Shown here: one piece after another, positions 3,247 to 34,961 of the stretch
Layout of the letters: each line of letters starts with the position of its first letter
Numbering within the stretch: the first letter of the stretch is position 1
Sequence record: ON528724
Reading direction: 5' to 3' (one strand)
Source: Shigella phage ESh12
Length of the DNA: 39,704 nucleotides
Program-made: the position numbers and the translations under genes
Notes under the pieces: model-generated
What the model was told of the DNA's origin: nothing
The model's database searches: none
What the model saw: the letters and a program-made list of their open reading frames with translations, nothing else

Positions 3247-3546
3247 ATGGCTATGACCAAGAAATTTAAAGTGTCATTCGATGTTACCGCTAAGATGGCA
3301 TCTGACGTTCAGGCAATCTTGGAGAAAGACATTCTGCACCTGTGTAAGCAGGTTGGCTCAGGCGCTATTGTCCCCACTGGTAAACAGAAAGAGATGATTG
3401 TCCAGTTCCTGACGTATGGCATGGAGGGGCTGATGGCCTTCCTTGTGCGAACGTCTTTCCGTGAGGCAATCAAAGATATGCACGAAGAGTATGCCGATAA
3501 GGATAGCTTCAAGCTGTCTCCCGCTACTGTACGGGAGGTGTTCTAA
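3247..3546 (+). CDS. 5.5: gp5.5 (H-NS-binding protein family)
   Basis: 99 aa, synteny and similarity to T7 gp5.5; stop overlaps start of 5.7 (TAATGA). Confidence 0.8.
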   Translation: MAMTKKFKVSFDVTAKMASDVQAILEKDILHLCKQVGSGAIVPTGKQKEMIVQFLTYGMEGLMAFLVRTSFREAIKDMHEEYADKDSFKLSPATVREVF

Positions 3547-4937: not shown

Positions 4938-4995
4938 TAAACTCAAGGCTCTCTACAATTAACCCTCACTAAAGGGAAGAGGGAGCCTTTATGAT
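4938..4995 (+). promoter_or_regulatory. RNase III-type hairpin (R6.5 position) enclosing a promoter
   Basis: AAACTCAAGGCTCTC ... GAGGGAGCCTTTATGATTATT arms flank the promoter at 4957..4979. Confidence 0.5.
4957..4979 (+). promoter_or_regulatory. T3-type phage RNAP promoter (phi6.5 position)
   Basis: AATTAACCCTCACTAAAGGGAAG. Confidence 0.85.
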
Positions 4996-5030
4996 TATTA
5001 CTTTAAGACTTAACCTTAAGAGGTGAAATT

Positions 5031-5276
5031 ATGTTACAACCAATTAATCATGTTTTAACTCATCCCGATGATATTCCTAGTATGCCTCGTGCAGCTAAAG
5101 AGTATCTACAGGTGCGCTTCAATCAGGCTTATGTGATGGAGTCTGGGGAGTACCGTGCGCTACGCGCTGCTGGATACTCTGAGTCTTTCATTGCGGGTGT
5201 GTTGCATGGTCTGTACCTTGCCTCTCGAACACTTGATGAGATTGAGGTGCGTAAAGAGCAACTGAGACAGGAGTAA
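5031..5276 (+). CDS. 6.5: gp6.5-like protein
   Basis: 81-aa ORF, RBS AAGAGGTG, syntenic. Confidence 0.6.
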   Translation: MLQPINHVLTHPDDIPSMPRAAKEYLQVRFNQAYVMESGEYRALRAAGYSESFIAGVLHGLYLASRTLDEIEVRKEQLRQE

Positions 5277-5889: not shown

Positions 5890-7497
5890 ATGGCTGATTC
5901 TAAACGTACAGGATTGGGCGAAGACGGTGCTAAAGCTACCTATGACCGCCTAACGAACGACCGTAGAGCCTATGAGACTCGTGCGGAAAACTGTGCGCAA
6001 TACACCATTCCGTCCTTGTTCCCGAAGGAGTCCGATAACGAATCTACCGACTACACGACTCCGTGGCAGGCTGTAGGTGCTCGGGGTCTTAACAATCTGG
6101 CCTCTAAGTTAATGCTTGCGTTATTCCCGATGCAGTCGTGGATGAAGCTGACCATTAGCGAATATGAGGCGAAGCAGCTTGTTGGAGACCCTGCTGGACT
6201 CGCTAAGGTGGACGAAGGTCTGTCTATGGTTGAGCGTATTATCATGAATTATATCGAATCCAACAGTTACCGTGTAACACTCTTTGAGTGCCTCAAGCAG
6301 TTGATCGTGGCAGGTAATGCACTGCTTTACTTACCGGAACCCGAAGGTAGCTACAATCCGATGAAGCTGTACCGATTGTCTTCTTATGTTGTCCAAAGAG
6401 ACGCATACGGCAATGTGTTACAGATTGTCACTCGTGACCAGATAGCCTTTGGTGCTCTCCCGGAAGACGTTCGGTCTGCGGTAGAGAAAGCTGGTGGTGA
6501 GAAGAAGATGGACGAAATGGTCGATGTGTACACCCATGTGTATCTCGATGAAGAGTCCGGCGATTACCTCAAGTACGAGGAAGTAGAGGACGTTGAGATT
6601 GATGGCTCCGATGCCACCTATCCTACTGACGCTATGCCCTACATTCCGGTTCGCATGGTTCGCATTGATGGCGAGTCTTACGGTCGCTCCTACTGTGAAG
6701 AATACTTAGGTGACTTAAGGTCTCTTGAGAATCTCCAAGAGGCTATCGTTAAGATGAGCATGATTAGTGCGAAGGTCATCGGTCTGGTGAACCCGGCTGG
6801 CATCACGCAGCCCCGTAGATTAACCAAAGCTCAGACTGGTGACTTCGTTCCCGGTCGTCGAGAAGACATTGACTTCCTGCAACTGGAGAAGCAAGCTGAC
6901 TTTACCGTAGCGAAAGCTGTGAGTGACCAGATAGAAGCACGCTTATCGTATGCCTTTATGTTGAACTCTGCGGTACAGCGCACAGGTGAACGTGTGACCG
7001 CCGAAGAGATTCGATACGTTGCGTCAGAACTGGAAGATACGCTTGGTGGTGTCTATTCGATTCTGTCTCAAGAACTGCAATTGCCTCTGGTTCGTGTGCT
7101 CTTGAAGCAACTCCAAGCAACCTCGCAGATTCCTGAGCTACCGAAAGAAGCCGTTGAGCCGACTATCAGCACAGGTCTGGAAGCAATCGGGCGTGGTCAA
7201 GACCTCGATAAGCTGGAGCGCTGTATCTCCGCTTGGGCTGCTCTGGCTCCTATGCAGGGAGACCCGGACATTAACCTTGCTGTCATTAAGCTGCGCATTG
7301 CTAACGCCATTGGTATTGATACTTCTGGTATCCTACTGACGGACGAGCAGAAGCAAGCACTGATGATGCAGGATGCGGCCCAAACAGGCATCGAGAACGC
7401 TGCCGCCACTGGTGGGGCTGGTGTTGGTGCTCTAGCGACCTCAAGTCCAGAAGCCATGCAGGGTGCAGCAGCACAGGCTGGCCTAGACGCCACCTAA
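5890..7497 (+). CDS. 8: Portal (head-tail connector) protein gp8
   Basis: 535 aa, synteny and strong similarity to T7 gp8. Confidence 0.95.
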   Translation: MADSKRTGLGEDGAKATYDRLTNDRRAYETRAENCAQYTIPSLFPKESDNESTDYTTPWQAVGARGLNNLASKLMLALFPMQSWMKLTISEYEAKQLVGDPAGLAKVDEGLSMVERIIMNYIESNSYRVTLFECLKQLIVAGNALLYLPEPEGSYNPMKLYRLSSYVVQRDAYGNVLQIVTRDQIAFGALPEDVRSAVEKAGGEKKMDEMVDVYTHVYLDEESGDYLKYEEVEDVEIDGSDATYPTDAMPYIPVRMVRIDGESYGRSYCEEYLGDLRSLENLQEAIVKMSMISAKVIGLVNPAGITQPRRLTKAQTGDFVPGRREDIDFLQLEKQADFTVAKAVSDQIEARLSYAFMLNSAVQRTGERVTAEEIRYVASELEDTLGGVYSILSQELQLPLVRVLLKQLQATSQIPELPKEAVEPTISTGLEAIGRGQDLDKLERCISAWAALAPMQGDPDINLAVIKLRIANAIGIDTSGILLTDEQKQALMMQDAAQTGIENAAATGGAGVGALATSSPEAMQGAAAQAGLDAT

Positions 7498-25124: not shown

Positions 25125-25147
25125 AATTAACCCTCACTAAAGGGAGA
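25125..25147 (+). promoter_or_regulatory. T3-type phage RNAP promoter (phiOR, right-end replication promoter)
   Basis: Exact consensus AATTAACCCTCACTAAAGGGAGA. Confidence 0.85.
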
Positions 25148-25287
25148 GAGGGGACTTAAAGCTACTATATAGGTTAGTCATTCAGGTTATGCAATGACCC
25201 TTTATGCACTAAAAGTCTCCTCTGTGATTGGTGATATTATCATTGTATAATCACCCTACCTTAGAGCAACTGAAAGGAGGTGGCTCA

Positions 25288-25659: not shown

Positions 25660-25895
25660 TCTCACAGTTCAAGAACCCAAAGTACCCCCCCCATAGCCCT
25701 CTTAAAGCCACCTAAAGCCATCCCTACCCCTAGGGTTTAACCTTCGGTTAACCTTGGGTATCTCCTCAAGTGGCCTATAGGATAGCCTAAAGTGTTGCCT
25801 CAAGTCAATACCTAAAGTGTCGGATGGCTTAAAGAGGCCTTAAAGAGTGTCCTAGTGTACCAGTTCGATAGTACATCTCTATGTGTCCCTATCTG
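25660..25895. repeat. Terminal repeat of the mature genome (single copy here, as at a concatemer junction)
   Basis: Begins TCTCACAGTTCAAGAACCCAAAGTACCCCCCC, matching T7/T3 left-end sequence from memory; end boundary is approximate. Confidence 0.5.
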
Positions 25896-26075: not shown

Positions 26076-26129
26076 TGAGGGATACCTAAAGAGGGAATAA
26101 AAGATTTAATAAAAGATTTAAATTAATGG

Positions 26130-26165
26130 TTGACTTTAAGTTACCTTTAAAGCTATTATTCATCA
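26130..26165 (+). promoter_or_regulatory. Host sigma70 early promoter (A1 position)
   Basis: -35 TTGACT at 26130, -10 TATTAT at 26154. Confidence 0.6.
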
Positions 26166-27145: not shown

Positions 27146-27195
27146 GTTAAACTCAAGGTCGCTCCATGCGAGTGGCCTTTATGATTATCACTTAA
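27146..27195 (+). promoter_or_regulatory. RNase III-type hairpin
   Basis: AAACTCAAGGTCGCTCCATGCGAGTGGCCTTTATGATTATCA. Confidence 0.55.
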
Positions 27196-27214
27196 CTATC
27201 AAAGGAAGTACACC

Positions 27215-27499
27215 ATGCGCTTAAGTAAAGATACAGCGGTAGCTCTGAGGTCAGCAATTGAATCCAGAGCCGCACACAACGATGGAGGTCTTGCGGATGT
27301 TGCACGGGCTTACAAGGAGAAAGGCCTAACATTCCGTAGATTCATGTGGGACTGTTATCACGCAGTGGGCTTTAAAGAGACCACCAGAATCATATCAGAG
27401 CACAACACGGTGACAGTGATTGGTGGGCATATAACAGACGTCAATGATTCGCACATCGAAACTATGCTCAAGGTTGCACTGAAAGACATGGCTTATTAG
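27215..27499 (+). CDS. Early hypothetical protein
   Basis: 94-aa ORF, ATG after AAAGGAAG; no recognisable motif. Confidence 0.5.
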   Translation: MRLSKDTAVALRSAIESRAAHNDGGLADVARAYKEKGLTFRRFMWDCYHAVGFKETTRIISEHNTVTVIGGHITDVNDSHIETMLKVALKDMAY

Positions 27500-27502
27500 T
27501 GA

Positions 27503-27550
27503 TTAACTACAGGTCGGTAGCTCGTAGCGGCCTGAATGATAATTACTAAA
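27503..27550 (+). promoter_or_regulatory. RNase III-type hairpin variant
   Basis: AACTACAGGTCGGTAGCTCGTAGCGGCCTGAATGATAATTAC. Confidence 0.4.
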
Positions 27551-27570
27551 CAACCTGAGAGGATATAACC

Positions 27571-27726
27571 ATGAAACGATACGCCATCCTTATTCCCGGC
27601 TGGTGCTACTCAATGACATGCTATGGGTACAACGAAAGGGACGCTCGTGCACGCTTTAGAGACCAACAAGGCTTTGGCAAGCGTTTACCTAATGGAACGG
27701 CTGTATGGGAGTTATGTAATGAGTAA
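27571..27726 (+). CDS. Early small hypothetical protein (51 aa)
   Basis: ATG after GAGAGGA; stop overlaps next ORF start; below ORF-track cutoff. Confidence 0.35.
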   Translation: MKRYAILIPGWCYSMTCYGYNERDARARFRDQQGFGKRLPNGTAVWELCNE

Positions 27727-28105: not shown

Positions 28106-28303
28106 ATGATGGCAGCACTAATCGCACTGGTCTATCTGTGCATCGCAATGTACTTTATGCGAGACTTTAAGCGCGGTCTGGCAATACACAAGGCAACACT
28201 GAGTTACTTTAAGTGGGGATTCATCCCACGGTTTACGGTTCGTGAACGCAACGGACGCTTTAAGGCCAACAAGGTGGGAGTATTCTACATTGCAACCCAT
28301 TAA
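28106..28303 (+). CDS. Early small membrane protein (65 aa)
   Basis: Hydrophobic N-terminus MMAALIALVYLCIAMYFM then basic tail; preceded by a 26-codon hydrophobic mini-ORF at 28029..28109. Confidence 0.35.
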   Translation: MMAALIALVYLCIAMYFMRDFKRGLAIHKATLSYFKWGFIPRFTVRERNGRFKANKVGVFYIATH

Positions 28304-28742
28304 GACCTGCGTAGCGTGTGGTGAGATAAAGCCGCTTGAGTTCTACACAAAGAATGCTGCGTCACCTGATGGACACATCGGCACATGCAAGGCGTGTAAA
28401 GCCAAACAGCAGCGCGAAAGGCGCTTAAAGGCGAAAGCCGCCTCTGTGCCTACCGATAAGGCGCTTAAGGATGCAAAGCGGAGACGCAACAACCACCTGA
28501 AAGTAAACTATGGTATTGATGAACTGACCTACCGTAAAATGTATGAGGAGCAGAACGGAGTGTGCGCCATATGCAAGCACCCGGAGAGTATAGCCGGTAG
28601 GCAGCTCTGTGTTGACCACTCCCACATCACCGGGGACGTTCGGGGTCTTTTATGTTCAAACTGCAACAGGGGAATAGGGCTACTAAAGGATTCACCTGAA
28701 TTGTTACGCAATGCCTTCCACTATTTAACGGGCAAACTTTAA
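28290..28742 (+). CDS. Endonuclease VII-like (His-Me finger / HNH) nuclease
   Basis: CAICKHPE...LCVDHSHITGDVRGLLCSNCNRGIGLL matches the T4 endonuclease VII zinc-binding/catalytic signature from memory; start uncertain (TTG 28290 after GGTGGGAG, or GTG 28242). Confidence 0.7.
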   Translation: MQPIKTCVACGEIKPLEFYTKNAASPDGHIGTCKACKAKQQRERRLKAKAASVPTDKALKDAKRRRNNHLKVNYGIDELTYRKMYEEQNGVCAICKHPESIAGRQLCVDHSHITGDVRGLLCSNCNRGIGLLKDSPELLRNAFHYLTGKL

Positions 28743-28800
28743 GACCAATAAGGTCGGTATCTTCTACAGCACATTAACTACTACCTAAGGACACATTGAA

Positions 28801-29980: not shown

Positions 29981-32635
29981 ATGAACATCATCGAAAACAT
30001 CGAAAAGAATGACTTCTCCGAAATCGAACTGGCTGCTATCCCGTTCAACACACTGGCAGACCACTACGGTAGCGCATTGGCTCGTGAACAACTGGCTTTA
30101 GAACATGAGTCTTATGAGCTAGGCGAGCGCCGCTTCCTCAAGATGCTTGAGCGTCAAGCGAAAGCTGGTGAGATTGCAGACAACGCAGCCGCTAAGCCAT
30201 TACTCGCTACGCTTCTCCCTAAGTTAACCGCACGCATCGTTGAGTGGCTCGAAGAGTACGCATCGAAGAAAGGCCGCAAGCCTAGCGCATACGCACCGCT
30301 CCAGTTACTCAAGCCGGAGGCCTCCGCGTTTATCACCCTGAAAGTTATCCTTGCATCACTGACCAGCACGAACATGACAACCATTCAGGCCGCTGCTGGT
30401 ATGCTGGGGAAGGCCATTGAGGATGAGGCACGTTTCGGGCGTATCCGTGACCTCGAAGCGAAGCACTTCAAGAAGCACGTTGAGGAACAGCTCAACAAGC
30501 GCCACGGGCAAGTCTACAAGAAGGCCTTTATGCAGGTGGTCGAGGCCGATATGATTGGTCGAGGCCTGCTTGGTGGCGAGGCGTGGTCTAGCTGGGATAA
30601 AGAAACCACGATGCACGTAGGGATTCGCCTGATTGAAATGCTGATTGAATCCACGGGTCTGGTGGAATTACAGCGACACAACGCAGGTAACGCAGGCTCT
30701 GACCATGAGGCACTGCAACTGGCCCAAGAGTACGTCGATGTGTTAGCGAAGCGTGCAGGCGCTCTGGCGGGCATCTCTCCGATGTTCCAGCCGTGTGTCG
30801 TACCGCCTAAACCTTGGGTAGCAATCACCGGAGGCGGCTATTGGGCTAACGGTCGCAGACCTTTGGCACTCGTTCGCACTCACTCTAAGAAGGGACTGAT
30901 GCGCTATGAGGATGTTTACATGCCAGAAGTTTACAAGGCGGTCAACATCGCACAGAACACCGCATGGAAAATCAACAAGAAAGTTCTTGCGGTTGTCAAT
31001 GAAATTGTTAACTGGAAGAATTGCCCGGTAGCAGACATTCCATCACTGGAGCGCCAAGAGTTACCGCCTAAGCCGGACGACATTGACACCAACGAGGCAG
31101 CACTCAAGGAGTGGAAGAAAGCCGCCGCTGGTATCTATCGCTTGGACAAGGCACGAGTGTCTCGCCGTATCAGCTTAGAGTTCATGCTGGAGCAGGCCAA
31201 CAAGTTTGCAAACAAGAAAGCAATCTGGTTCCCTTACAACATGGACTGGCGCGGTCGTGTGTACGCTGTGCCGATGTTCAACCCGCAAGGCAACGACATG
31301 ACGAAAGGTCTGCTGACCCTCGCTAAAGGCAAGCCAATCGGTGAGGAAGGGTTCTACTGGCTGAAAATCCACGGTGCGAACTGTGCGGGTGTCGATAAGG
31401 TGCCTTTCCCTGAGCGCATCGCGTTCATTGAGAAGCACGTAGACGACATTCTGGCTTGCGCCAAAGACCCAATCAATAACACTTGGTGGGCTGAGCAGGA
31501 CTCACCGTTCTGTTTCCTCGCGTTTTGCTTCGAGTATGCAGGCGTTGCGCACCACGGTCTGAGCTACAATTGCTCTCTGCCGCTGGCGTTCGATGGGTCT
31601 TGCTCCGGTATCCAGCACTTCTCCGCGATGCTCCGCGATGAGGTAGGCGGTCGCGCGGTTAACCTACTGCCAAGCGAAACCGTGCAGGACATTTACGGCA
31701 TCGTTGCACAGAAAGTAAACGAGATTCTCAAACAGGATGCAATCAACGGCACACCTAACGAGATGATTACCGTGACCGATAAGGACACCGGGGAAATCTC
31801 TGAGAAGCTCAAGCTGGGAACCTCAACGCTGGCGCAACAGTGGCTGGCGTATGGTGTAACCCGTAGCGTAACTAAACGTTCGGTCATGACGCTGGCTTAC
31901 GGTTCCAAGGAGTTCGGCTTTCGTCAACAGGTACTGGACGACACCATTCAGCCTGCGATCGACAGCGGTAAGGGCTTGATGTTCACCCAACCTAACCAAG
32001 CGGCTGGCTATATGGCTAAGCTGATTTGGGACGCGGTGAGCGTGACCGTAGTCGCAGCGGTTGAGGCGATGAACTGGCTCAAGTCTGCCGCTAAGCTGCT
32101 GGCTGCTGAGGTCAAGGACAAGAAGACCAAGGAGATTCTGCGCCACCGTTGCGCGGTTCACTGGACTACGCCGGACGGCTTCCCGGTCTGGCAGGAATAC
32201 CGCAAGCCACTCCAGAAGCGTCTCGATATGATTTTCTTAGGGCAATTCCGTCTGCAACCGACGATTAATACCCTCAAGGATTCAGGCATTGACGCACACA
32301 AGCAGGAATCTGGCATCGCTCCTAACTTTGTTCACTCACAGGATGGTAGCCACCTGCGCATGACAGTCGTTTATGCTCACGAGAAGTATGGTATTGAGTC
32401 CTTTGCGCTCATCCATGACAGCTTTGGGACTATTCCGGCAGACGCTGGTAAGCTCTTTAAGGCTGTGCGTGAAACGATGGTTCTCACCTACGAGAACAAC
32501 GATGTGCTGGCAGACTTCTATGACCAGTTTGCAGACCAGCTACACGAGACCCAACTTGACAAGATGCCTCCTCTTCCGAAGAAAGGGAACCTGAACCTGC
32601 AAGACATTCTCAAGTCTGACTTTGCCTTTGCATAA
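29981..32635 (+). CDS. 1: Single-subunit DNA-dependent RNA polymerase gp1, T3 specificity
   Basis: 884 aa from MNIIENIEKNDFSEIELAAIPF; near-identical to T3 RNAP from memory; consistent with T3-type promoters throughout. Confidence 0.97.
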   Translation: MNIIENIEKNDFSEIELAAIPFNTLADHYGSALAREQLALEHESYELGERRFLKMLERQAKAGEIADNAAAKPLLATLLPKLTARIVEWLEEYASKKGRKPSAYAPLQLLKPEASAFITLKVILASLTSTNMTTIQAAAGMLGKAIEDEARFGRIRDLEAKHFKKHVEEQLNKRHGQVYKKAFMQVVEADMIGRGLLGGEAWSSWDKETTMHVGIRLIEMLIESTGLVELQRHNAGNAGSDHEALQLAQEYVDVLAKRAGALAGISPMFQPCVVPPKPWVAITGGGYWANGRRPLALVRTHSKKGLMRYEDVYMPEVYKAVNIAQNTAWKINKKVLAVVNEIVNWKNCPVADIPSLERQELPPKPDDIDTNEAALKEWKKAAAGIYRLDKARVSRRISLEFMLEQANKFANKKAIWFPYNMDWRGRVYAVPMFNPQGNDMTKGLLTLAKGKPIGEEGFYWLKIHGANCAGVDKVPFPERIAFIEKHVDDILACAKDPINNTWWAEQDSPFCFLAFCFEYAGVAHHGLSYNCSLPLAFDGSCSGIQHFSAMLRDEVGGRAVNLLPSETVQDIYGIVAQKVNEILKQDAINGTPNEMITVTDKDTGEISEKLKLGTSTLAQQWLAYGVTRSVTKRSVMTLAYGSKEFGFRQQVLDDTIQPAIDSGKGLMFTQPNQAAGYMAKLIWDAVSVTVVAAVEAMNWLKSAAKLLAAEVKDKKTKEILRHRCAVHWTTPDGFPVWQEYRKPLQKRLDMIFLGQFRLQPTINTLKDSGIDAHKQESGIAPNFVHSQDGSHLRMTVVYAHEKYGIESFALIHDSFGTIPADAGKLFKAVRETMVLTYENNDVLADFYDQFADQLHETQLDKMPPLPKKGNLNLQDILKSDFAFA

Positions 32636-32646
32636 CAAGCACTTAG

Positions 32647-32669
32647 CATTAACCCTCACTAACGGGAGA
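32647..32669 (+). promoter_or_regulatory. T3-type phage RNAP promoter (phi1.05 position)
   Basis: CATTAACCCTCACTAACGGGAGA. Confidence 0.8.
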
Positions 32670-32721
32670 CTACTTAAGGTCTCCCACTTTAAGACACTTT
32701 AGGTACTAAGAGATTAAATTT

Positions 32722-32994
32722 ATGATTAACATTAAGACTTTCTTTAAGAACATCTTTAAGTTAAACCGCTTGACTTCCGTTAAGTTCTACGCTTGGATGC
32801 CAGGTAGTGATGACCTCCGCAAGACTGAATTTAAGTTAGGCTTAGGGCCGTGCGGTAAGGTGGTCACGAAGTTGGAATGTTACTCAACGGCCTCCGGGAT
32901 GGTCATCTTCCAGACCACTGAGGACAACGAAACGAAATCCTTCTACTACCCGAAAGGTTCAACGTGTGGTCGTATCGAACGGACATACAGTTAA
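32722..32994 (+). CDS. 1.05: gp1.05-like small protein
   Basis: 90-aa ORF, AT-rich, weak RBS, lies in the presumed primary origin region. Confidence 0.45.
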   Translation: MINIKTFFKNIFKLNRLTSVKFYAWMPGSDDLRKTEFKLGLGPCGKVVTKLECYSTASGMVIFQTTEDNETKSFYYPKGSTCGRIERTYS

Positions 32995-33011
32995 CCCTCA
33001 CTAACGGGAGA
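32989..33011 (+). promoter_or_regulatory. T3-type phage RNAP promoter (phi1.1 position)
   Basis: AGTTAACCCTCACTAACGGGAGA overlapping stop of 1.05. Confidence 0.8.
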
Positions 33012-33060
33012 GTTAAACTTAAGGTCATCAACAACGGTGGCCTTTGTGATTAACTTTCAA
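33012..33060 (+). promoter_or_regulatory. RNase III-type hairpin (R1.1 position)
   Basis: TAAACTTAAGGTCATCAACAACGGTGGCCTTTGTGATTAAC. Confidence 0.5.
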
Positions 33061-33086
33061 TACACATCAACATGAGGTAAGATACT

Positions 33087-33227
33087 ATGCGTACCAACTT
33101 TGAGAAATTTACCAAGCGCGATTCAGTGGTCAACGAGCATGGCGAACAGTGGCAAGAGCGCCGTGACCGCATGAAGAAACGCCACAAGCAACAGCGCGGT
33201 AACTCACAGAAACGGGAGTGGAACTAA
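33087..33227 (+). CDS. 1.1: gp1.1 small basic protein
   Basis: 46 aa MRTNFEKFTKR... resembles T7 gp1.1; below ORF-track cutoff. Confidence 0.6.
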   Translation: MRTNFEKFTKRDSVVNEHGEQWQERRDRMKKRHKQQRGNSQKREWN

Positions 33228-33232
33228 TGATG

Positions 33233-33505
33233 ATGGGACGTATCTATAGCGGCAACCTGAACGATTACAAAGATGCGGTAGCGCGTCTACAGGAAGACCA
33301 TGACGTGACCGTGAAGATGGAGTCATTCAGCTATGAAAACCCAGCGAAGATGTGCAGGTCATCAGGTGAGGTTCTCCGCGTGTTCACACGCTCAGGGCAT
33401 CCGGTGGCATCCAGAACCTTCGAGCATAGTGACAGCGATGTGCAAATCAACGCGCAGACTGCATGGCTCCGCAAGGTTCACAGCGATTTGAAACACTGGA
33501 AGTAA
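33233..33505 (+). CDS. 1.2: gp1.2 (host dGTPase inhibitor family)
   Basis: 90 aa from MGRIYSGNL, ends HWK; similar to T7 gp1.2; ATG choice among three adjacent Met is uncertain. Confidence 0.75.
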   Translation: MGRIYSGNLNDYKDAVARLQEDHDVTVKMESFSYENPAKMCRSSGEVLRVFTRSGHPVASRTFEHSDSDVQINAQTAWLRKVHSDLKHWK

Positions 33506-33525
33506 TAACCCTCACTAACAGGAGA
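33503..33525 (+). promoter_or_regulatory. T3-type phage RNAP promoter (phi1.3 position)
   Basis: TAATAACCCTCACTAACAGGAGA. Confidence 0.75.
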
Positions 33526-33531
33526 AACGAA

Positions 33532-33948
33532 ATGAGAAACATCGAACGGTTCAACGCAAAGACTGAACCTTGCGGTGACTGTCTACGTTGGACTGGTCGA
33601 ATCCAGCCTAACGGTTACGGACAGTTTCGCCTCGAAGGTAAAACACAATACGCACATCGAGCAGCTTACAAGCTGTTTATCGGTGAATTGGACAATAAAG
33701 ATACAGTCCTCCACTCGTGCGATAACAGGTGGTGTGTGAACCCTGAGCATTTGACCAAGGGAACGCAGGCCGATAACCTGAAAGACATGGCGATAAAGGG
33801 TAGGCACCACGCCATTAAGATTCCGAACGATGCCATTGAGGGCATCCGTAAAGACCCTCGCTCTGCCACTGTGATAGCGGCTGAGTGGGGCGTCCATCCA
33901 ACAACCATCCATAAGATTAAGCGAAACATCAACAGGAGATTCGTATGA
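33532..33948 (+). CDS. HNH endonuclease (free-standing, homing-endonuclease-like)
   Basis: 138 aa; HSCDNRWCVNPEHLTKGTQADN HNH core, Cys-containing N-terminal region, C-terminal helix-turn-helix-like tail; stop overlaps ligase ATG (ATGA). Confidence 0.8.
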   Translation: MRNIERFNAKTEPCGDCLRWTGRIQPNGYGQFRLEGKTQYAHRAAYKLFIGELDNKDTVLHSCDNRWCVNPEHLTKGTQADNLKDMAIKGRHHAIKIPNDAIEGIRKDPRSATVIAAEWGVHPTTIHKIKRNINRRFV

Positions 33949-34961
33949 ACATTTTCAAGACCGCGCCATATAAAGCCGTATCCTTTGTAGAGTCTGCCGT
34001 GAAGAAAGCACTTGACAATGCTGGTTATTTGATTTGCGATTGCAAATATGATGGTGTTCGTGGTAACATCGTGGTTGACAACGTGGCTGAGGCTGCATGG
34101 CTGTCCCGTGTAGGTAAGCTGATTCCGGCGCTGGAGCACCTGAACGGCTTCGATAAGCGCTGGCAGCAACTACTGAACGATGACCGCTGCATCTTCCCGG
34201 ACGGCTTCATGCTGGATGGTGAACTGATGGTCAAAGGCGTAGACTTCAACACAGGGTCTGGCCTGCTGCGTACCAAGTGGCTCAAGAAGAACAACTTCAT
34301 GTTTGACCGTGGTGGTGTTGAGCCGCTGAAAGGTTCCAAAGTAGCCTTTGAGTTAGACCCCAAGCTACTCAGCGTGCGCCTGTATGCTGTCATGCCGATT
34401 CACATTGCGGAGTCTGGCGAGGACTACGATGTACAGAACCTGCTGATGCCGTATCATGTGGAAGCCATGCGCTCTCTTCTGGTTGAATACTTCCCGGAAA
34501 TCGAGTGGCTTATCGCTGAGACCTACGAGGTCTACGATATGGATTCACTGACTGAACTGTACGAAGAGAAGCGTGCCGAAGGTCACGAGGGTCTCATTGT
34601 GAAAGACCCACAAGGCATCTACAAGCGAGGCAAGAAGTCTGGCTGGTGGAAGCTCAAGCCTGAGTGTGAAGCTGACGGTATCATTCAGGGTGTCAATTGG
34701 GGAACCGAAGGGTTAGCCAACGAGGGTAAAGTGATAGGCTTTAGTGTGCTTCTTGAGACTGGTCGTTTAGTAGACGCCAACAACATCTCTCGCGCACTGA
34801 TGGACGAGTTCACAGCCAACGTTAAAGCCCACGGTGAAGACTTCTACAACGGGTGGGCCTGTCAGGTCAACTATATGGAAGAGACCCCGGACGGCTCCCT
34901 GCGTCACCCTAGCTTCGAGAAGTTCCGAGGCACTGAGGACAACCCTCAAGAGAAAATGTAA
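33945..34961 (+). CDS. 1.3: ATP-dependent DNA ligase gp1.3
   Basis: 338 aa; active-site KYDGVRG, strong similarity to T7 ligase. Confidence 0.95.
   Translation: MNIFKTAPYKAVSFVESAVKKALDNAGYLICDCKYDGVRGNIVVDNVAEAAWLSRVGKLIPALEHLNGFDKRWQQLLNDDRCIFPDGFMLDGELMVKGVDFNTGSGLLRTKWLKKNNFMFDRGGVEPLKGSKVAFELDPKLLSVRLYAVMPIHIAESGEDYDVQNLLMPYHVEAMRSLLVEYFPEIEWLIAETYEVYDMDSLTELYEEKRAEGHEGLIVKDPQGIYKRGKKSGWWKLKPECEADGIIQGVNWGTEGLANEGKVIGFSVLLETGRLVDANNISRALMDEFTANVKAHGEDFYNGWACQVNYMEETPDGSLRHPSFEKFRGTEDNPQEKM

Follow-up and report, generated by a model that had tools for sequence, protein, structure and literature searches.

The region directly downstream of the RNA polymerase gene (gene 1) of Shigella phage ESh12 quite probably contains, at positions 32647-32763, this phage's copy of the primary replication origin of the T3/T7 group. 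Its parts would be the promoter phi1.05 and, 3' of it, a short 5' hairpin and easily melted AT-rich DNA over about 80-100 bp; initiation at this site in ESh12 itself we infer by homology. A previous sequence-only reading had proposed a primary origin spanning 32647-33060, in which two phage promoters and an RNase III hairpin took part. Identity to T3, the T3 annotation and likeness to T7 support a primary origin in this region, but the origin-like core appears to be restricted to phi1.05 and the ~100 nt downstream of it (~32647-32763). The feature is already known, as it is annotated in T3-like phages in records dating from 1987, and the sequence-only reading correctly rediscovered a textbook feature. 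Apart from narrowing the core, our analysis adds a module-level homology map to T7, in which the order of the modules is swapped, and the observation that exact loss of a promoter-bounded 342-bp unit recurs among sequenced teetreviruses.

The region matches the annotated origin of T3 and phiYeO3-12

The window, that is, the whole stretch of 39,704 nt that was analysed, comprises the complete genome of a T3-like phage (Teetrevirus) in circularly permuted form. The terminal repeat of phiYeO3-12 (232 bp) matches it once, at 25660-25890, and left-end and right-end fragments of phiYeO3-12 both converge on this interval, which places the physical left end near 25660. The window thus reads as a circular permutation of the linear genome in which the second copy of the terminal repeat is collapsed. 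Measured from this left end, which is inferred via the terminal repeat of phiYeO3-12, the transcription start of phi1.05 lies ~7005 nt (~17.5%) into the genome. The site is located just 3' of gene 1; a distance of ~15-17% from the genetic left end is expected for the primary origin. Over 14.7 kb around the site, the window is 94-96% identical, piecewise, to Shigella phage CT02, Klebsiella phage Keithsmous and others; compared with its nearest relatives, the genome is otherwise mosaic and ~95% identical.

The features of the region are listed in Table 1. Positions 32640-33070 (431 nt) are 98.6% identical to T3 and 98.8% identical to Serratia phage 2050H2, and the wider interval 32400-33300 is 98.8% identical to phiYeO3-12, in each case without indels. 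Among the window, T3 and phiYeO3-12, positions 32600-32768 are invariant. The few point differences from T3 and phiYeO3-12 affect neither the promoter nor the hairpin nor the leader, and two of them fall in the loop region of R1.1. Coordinate transfer from GenBank placed the feature "primary origin of (DNA) replication" at 32687-32763 (T3 AJ318471 and X05031; T7M JX421753) and a wider rep_origin at 32663-32804 (phiYeO3-12 AJ251805; T3 X17255); the origin annotations at these positions were counted as four independent records. Schmitt et al. (1987, J Mol Biol 193:479) is the reference behind the source record X05031, whose title reads "gene region 1-2.5 with primary origin of replication".

The remaining elements agree as well. 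In T3 and phiYeO3-12, phi1.05, the inverted repeat A/A', the origin, the primase site, gene 1.05, phi1.1 and R1.1 occupy the same relative places as in the window, and phi1.05, gene 1.05, phi1.1 and R1.1 are annotated in the T3 and phiYeO3-12 records at the same positions. The homologue of gene 1 is annotated as "RNA polymerase" in both phages, position 3313 of phiYeO3-12 corresponding to position 29981 of the window. This degree of identity, together with the matching annotations, supports the reading as an origin and at the same time makes it a known one.

Table 1. Features in and around the putative replication origin (window coordinates; +1, transcription start)
Feature	Position	Strand	Evidence and remarks
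Gene 1, single-subunit RNA polymerase, 884 aa	29981-32635	+	ORF; TAA at 32633-32635
Promoter phi1.05, CATTAACCCTCACTAACGGGAGA	32647-32669	+	+1 = 32664; T3-type, C at -1; 0 mismatches to the 20-mer
5' hairpin of the phi1.05 transcript, GGGAGAC / GTCTCCC	32664-32685	+	Annotated in X05031 as inverted repeat A/A'; first helix of the RNA fold
AT-rich core	32687-32763	.	GC 0.234; coordinate transfer, GC and stability ranks, likeness to T7
GACAC on + (GTGTC on -)	32693-32697	-	"Primase binding site" annotated in T3 X05031; role uncertain
Gene 1.05, 90 aa	32722-32994	+	ORF; PHROG 6379, E = 1.3e-36; CDS annotated in T3 and phiYeO3-12
Promoter phi1.1, AGTTAACCCTCACTAACGGGAGA	32989-33011	+	+1 = 33006; second copy of the 21-nt repeat
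Predicted RNase III hairpin R1.1 in the phi1.1 transcript	33008-33058	+	Fold, consensus structure and annotation
Gene 1.1, 46 aa	33087-33227	+	ORF; PHROG 2490, E = 1.1e-22; annotated in relatives

Phi1.05 borders one of the least stable segments of the genome

Phi1.05 is identical to the annotated phi1.05 of T3 and phiYeO3-12, and a spacer of 11 nt separates it from the stop codon of gene 1. Both phi1.05 and phi1.1 match the 20-mer TAACCCTCACTAAMGGGAGA without mismatch. At up to three mismatches, this 20-mer has 15 matches in the window, all on the + strand, and none in 100 shuffled sequences. As the sequence-only reading had stated, two T3-type promoters thus directly follow gene 1 at a distance of 342 nt; they form an exact 21-nt direct repeat with copies starting at 32649 and 32991. 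The claim that they share an initiation variant also held, and among the promoters of the window only these two carry exactly ACGGGAGA, with C at -1. Other start variants are ACGGGAAC in the promoter at 490 and ACAGGAG in three others. Scans of positions 32000-34000 for sigma-70 promoters and intrinsic terminators revealed nothing beyond the expectation from shuffled sequences. Inside gene 1, at 31316-31326, we observed an 11-nt match resembling the promoter core (ACCCTCACTAA with at most one mismatch), which is below the threshold of the 20-mer search. A match at the same relative position occurs in Leclercia phage 10164-302 (4630). It is probably a chance match within coding sequence.

Phi1.05, a rightward promoter for the phage's own RNA polymerase, lies at the upstream edge of an AT-rich segment. 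The 80 bp at 32686-32765 have a GC content of 0.225, compared to a genome mean of 0.503 (sd 0.056), and tie for the lowest-GC 80-bp window of the genome (listed second). According to nearest-neighbour free energy, this is also the second least stable 80-bp window, and 32706-32765 is the least stable 60-bp window in the genome. Directly 3' of the promoter, there is hence an easily melted segment of ~60-80 bp. The AT-rich stretch that had been described between the two promoters exists, but it is narrower than proposed: the remainder of gene 1.05 (32764-32988) has a GC content of 0.502, and the whole interval between the promoters one of 0.436.

The AT-rich core overlaps the ribosome binding site (RBS) and codons 1-14 of gene 1.05, the small ORF that had been predicted between the promoters and that we confirmed. 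The conserved domain of its product comprises residues 15-89, and the match to PHROG 6379 starts at residue 15. Moreover, the AT-rich leader resembles an ordinary translation leader of the T7 group, with TTAAG and ACTTTAAGA motifs and an RBS. Because the AT-rich DNA doubles as leader and codons 1-14 of gene 1.05, its composition alone cannot separate an origin from a leader. The 5' hairpin, with its arms at 32664-32670 and 32679-32685, is invariant in 10 relatives. In the same number of relatives, 2 of the 52 columns of the non-coding leader (32670-32721) are variable, compared to ~9-10% in the flanking coding DNA. With 10 close sequences, this lower variability is suggestive only. The comparison was based on phage records from GenBank; a search of IMG/VR for gp1.05 loci gave only two.

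The motif TTAAG occurs seven times in 32664-32850, compared to 1.8 copies per kb in the genome as a whole. Within the first codons of gene 1.05 (32729-32764), three of them recur at intervals of exactly 12 nt (32732, 32744 and 32756). The leader of the T7 origin is likewise rich in TTAAG, and in the window the motif may belong either to an origin or to a translation leader. Two TTTAAG copies at a distance of 12 nt (32743 and 32755; a 15-nt repeat family) were considered as a repeat array and rejected as too short and too few, and Tandem Repeats Finder detected no array in 32600-33100. A switch in the strand bias of (G/T)2GTC primase sites at 32700 was not seen, in a test of low power: the counts on the + and - strands were 23 and 43 to the left of this position and 132 and 176 to the right (Fisher p = 0.27).

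The modules are homologous to those of T7 but in swapped order

In T7 as in the window, the primary origin lies just 3' of gene 1, and a phage promoter is followed by an AT-rich segment (5929-6006 in T7, GC 0.269). We compared the individual modules of both phages. Phi1.05 with its leader is identical to phi1.1B and the following AT-rich region of T7 at 65 of 88 positions. The leader alone reached a score of 43 against T7, while 2000 shuffled sequences gave 14.8 +/- 2.6 with a maximum of 28. The T7 sequence downstream of phi1.1B is what we take to be the experimentally mapped AT-rich origin of that phage. Both leaders contain ACTTTAAGAC(A/C)C and AGAGATT(T)AAATT. Correspondingly, phi1.1 together with R1.1 matches phi1.1A and R1.1 of T7 at 47 of 63 positions, and cross-comparisons of non-matching modules scored only 18-20. 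The site thus shows homology to the T7 origin in addition to that annotated in T3. The pentamer annotated as a primase site is GTGTC on the - strand of the window, and at the aligned position of T7 it is GGGTC (GACCC on the + strand). According to a review cited in PMC12839067, the GGGTC within the AT-rich cluster of T7 is not used for priming.

The order of the modules differs. Downstream of gene 1, T7 has phi1.1A, R1.1, phi1.1B, AT-rich DNA and gene 1.1, whereas the window has phi1.05, AT-rich DNA, gene 1.05, phi1.1, R1.1 and gene 1.1. Gene 1.05 is without counterpart in T7, and the AT-rich DNA of the window overlaps its start. Both promoters of T7 lie 5' of the AT-rich segment, but in the window only phi1.05 does, so that only transcripts from phi1.05 can run through the AT-rich DNA. 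The analogy to the paired promoters of T7, on which the sequence-only reading had drawn, consequently does not carry over directly. Two tandem promoters 5' of the AT-rich segment were not found in the window; since T3 itself is without this arrangement, the trait marks the T7 version of the origin and not the family.

In T7, replication of the genome begins at the phi1.1A/phi1.1B origin, every origin holds a phage promoter, and initiation depends on transcription and needs T7 RNA polymerase and DNA polymerase (PMC8373140). The T7 helicase assists the transfer of the RNA primer from RNA polymerase to DNA polymerase (PMC5997990), and opening of the transcription bubble promotes loading of the helicase-primase (bioRxiv 10.1101/2024.07.25.605042). 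By analogy to T7, the RNA polymerase encoded by the adjacent gene 1 would start at 32664 and transcribe rightward. Within 32687-32763, the DNA polymerase would take over the transcript, or use the opened duplex, as primer, and this handover would give rise to rightward leading-strand synthesis. The helicase-primase might then load onto the displaced strand and establish a leftward fork. This DNA would at the same time provide gene 1.05 with its promoter, leader, RBS and codons 1-14. Phi1.1 and R1.1 would belong, with genes 1.1 and 1.2, to the following expression unit and would not be required by the origin, and the two identical promoter copies would delimit a 342-bp unit that could be lost by recombination.

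Exact loss of the promoter-bounded module in related phages

We queried the database for a junction that links gene 1, via one promoter only, directly to R1.1. This junction was present in eight records from seven phages, so that at least seven teetreviruses are without exactly one 342-bp unit: Leclercia phages 10164-302 and 10164RH, Erwinia phage ZCEA1, and Klebsiella phages mtp14, mtp1, KLB7 and KLB12. An assembly artefact is unlikely, as seven phages from several laboratories have the same exact junction and as the 21-nt repeat is below the typical k-mer length of assemblies. Relative to mtp15, mtp14 is missing exactly 342 bp; upstream, the surroundings of its promoter are those of phi1.05, and downstream those of phi1.1. 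Judging from these sequences, the mtp14 junction would be the product expected of recombination between the two 21-nt promoter copies. The two phages differ by 0.0% over 1 kb of the left flank and by 0.4% over 480 bp of the right flank. Phages in the one-promoter state are scattered over the neighbour-joining trees of the left and of the right flank, which points to repeated recent loss or gain of the module, or to its transfer by recombination. A third architecture was found in Salmonella phage RPN15 and Klebsiella phage Koku, which have phi1.05, an AT-rich 66-nt leader with a GC content of 0.303 and then a longer gene 1.05. By eye, this leader seems even closer to that of T7 than the leader of the window.

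The relatives without the 342-bp module are viable, so the module is not essential, and it appears to be dispensable in nature. In T7, secondary origins, for example phiOR and phi6.5, are used if the primary origin is deleted (PMC8373140). Given that the module is dispensable and that secondary origins can compensate in T7, a deletion of the AT-rich segment without a replication phenotype, which had been proposed as a refutation, would not be decisive against an origin.

These variants also allow a further, rather tentative idea, which we consider possible but would not bet on: T3-like phages may carry their "primary origin" as a facultative cassette that excises itself, composed of one copy of the promoter, the AT-rich DNA of the origin and gene 1.05, and bounded by the 21-nt repeats. 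If so, natural populations would be polymorphic for having a primary origin at all, and phiOL or phi6.5 would be used as origins instead, at no obvious cost. Near-isogenic pairs from nature, such as mtp14 and mtp15, would then allow the value of a "primary" origin to be measured.

Other promoter-proximal AT-rich sites

The design of a promoter followed by AT-rich DNA is not restricted to phi1.05. The three 80-bp windows of lowest GC content in the genome are all located directly 3' of phage promoters, namely phiOL (26057), phi1.05 (32650) and phi6.5 (4960). The phiOL-proximal segment (26086-26165, GC 0.225) is listed lowest and is at least as AT-rich as the phi1.05 segment. The AT-rich DNA that follows the phi6.5-like promoter (4984-5063, GC 0.263) is third, and low-GC DNA also follows the phiOR-like promoter at 25128 (25128-25253). 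Against the leader of the T7 primary origin, the phiOL leader scored 32 and the phi6.5 leader 26, compared to a maximum of 28 for shuffled sequences. The secondary origins phiOR and phi6.5 of T7 have the same design at other genome positions, and phiOL is presumably a secondary origin of T7 as well. By this analogy, the phiOL-, phi6.5- and phiOR-like sites of the window are likely secondary origins, and the phiOL-proximal segment could be used as much as the phi1.05 site, or more. A Leclercia phage without the 342-bp module keeps the pairs of promoter and AT-rich DNA at phiOL, phi6.5 and phiOR.

These observations bear on the main alternative, according to which the module is an expression cassette only and the phage replicates mainly from other promoter-proximal AT-rich sites, for example phiOL or phi6.5. 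Such a cassette would be in line with the exact absence of the module from viable relatives, among them mtp14, which is otherwise nearly identical to mtp15, and with the retention of promoter and AT-rich pairs at phiOL and phi6.5 in relatives without it. It would also agree with the phiOL-proximal segment of the window being equally AT-rich, and with the role of the AT-rich DNA at phi1.05 as RBS and codons 1-14 of gene 1.05. However, the likeness of the phi1.05 leader to the T7 sequence 3' of phi1.1B is significant beyond composition, the region includes the second-lowest duplex stability in the genome, and the T3 counterpart has long been annotated as an origin. Dispensability does not weigh heavily either, since the proven primary origin of T7 is equally dispensable (PMC8373140). 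We thus regard a function in expression alone as improbable and prefer a primary origin that coincides with the leader of gene 1.05.

Phi1.1 and R1.1 probably belong to a separate expression unit

The RNase III-type hairpin that had been noticed after gene 1.05 was borne out as a predicted structure corresponding to the annotated R1.1. It is an irregular hairpin of ~50 nt, homologous to R1.1 of T7, in which an internal loop separates two helices (-20.7 kcal/mol, z = -4.6, none of 200 shuffled sequences as stable). The consensus structure comprises 18 pairs across 11 sequences including R1.1 of T7, and three of these pairs show compensatory changes. At E <= 1, no Rfam family matched within 32000-34000, so that neither R1.1 nor the leader is covered by a curated family.

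Phi1.1 sits 3' of the AT-rich segment and is directed away from it, and the stop codon of gene 1.05 falls inside the promoter. The first gene served by phi1.1 and R1.1 is gene 1.1. The annotated origin features of T3 and phiYeO3-12 end at 32763 or 32804 and exclude both elements, which speaks against the previously suggested participation of phi1.1 and the hairpin in the origin. In the phages without the AT-rich module, R1.1 and the single promoter are unchanged. The conservation of the R1.1 structure up to T7, together with its retention where the AT-rich module is missing, fits mRNA processing rather than replication. Most simply, phi1.1 and R1.1 would direct the expression of genes 1.1 and 1.2 and the processing of their mRNA and would not be parts of the origin. 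That the whole 414-bp block forms one origin, with paired promoters equivalent to phi1.1A/B of T7 and with the RNase III hairpin included, is therefore very unlikely: phi1.05 and phi1.1 are the same in sequence and alone share ACGGGAGA, the T7 origin has two promoters, and phi1.1 with R1.1 is homologous to phi1.1A with R1.1, but transcripts from the downstream, outward-facing phi1.1 cannot cross the AT-rich DNA, positions 32764-32988 are coding DNA of ordinary composition, the published origins stop short of phi1.1 and R1.1, and the persistence of a single promoter with R1.1 in phages without the AT-rich module fits expression of genes 1.1 and 1.2.

Further differences from T3 and phiYeO3-12

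Two further regions of the window differ from the reference phages. The early region from phiOL to gene 0.7 is ~1 kb longer than in phiYeO3-12, and ~27194-27719 and 28303-28788 are without a match in that phage, with extra or different early genes located there. In addition, a gene for an HNH endonuclease of 138 aa (33532-33948, + strand; PHROG 59, E = 1.2e-31), which T3 does not have, lies between phi1.3 (33503-33525) and the DNA ligase gene, whose start at 33945 it overlaps. In T3 and phiYeO3-12, the R1.3 hairpin alone occupies this place. The insert is found in 18 database phages, including E-2, ECA2, CT02, Patroon and mtp1/14/15, and looks like an insertion polymorphism of a homing endonuclease.
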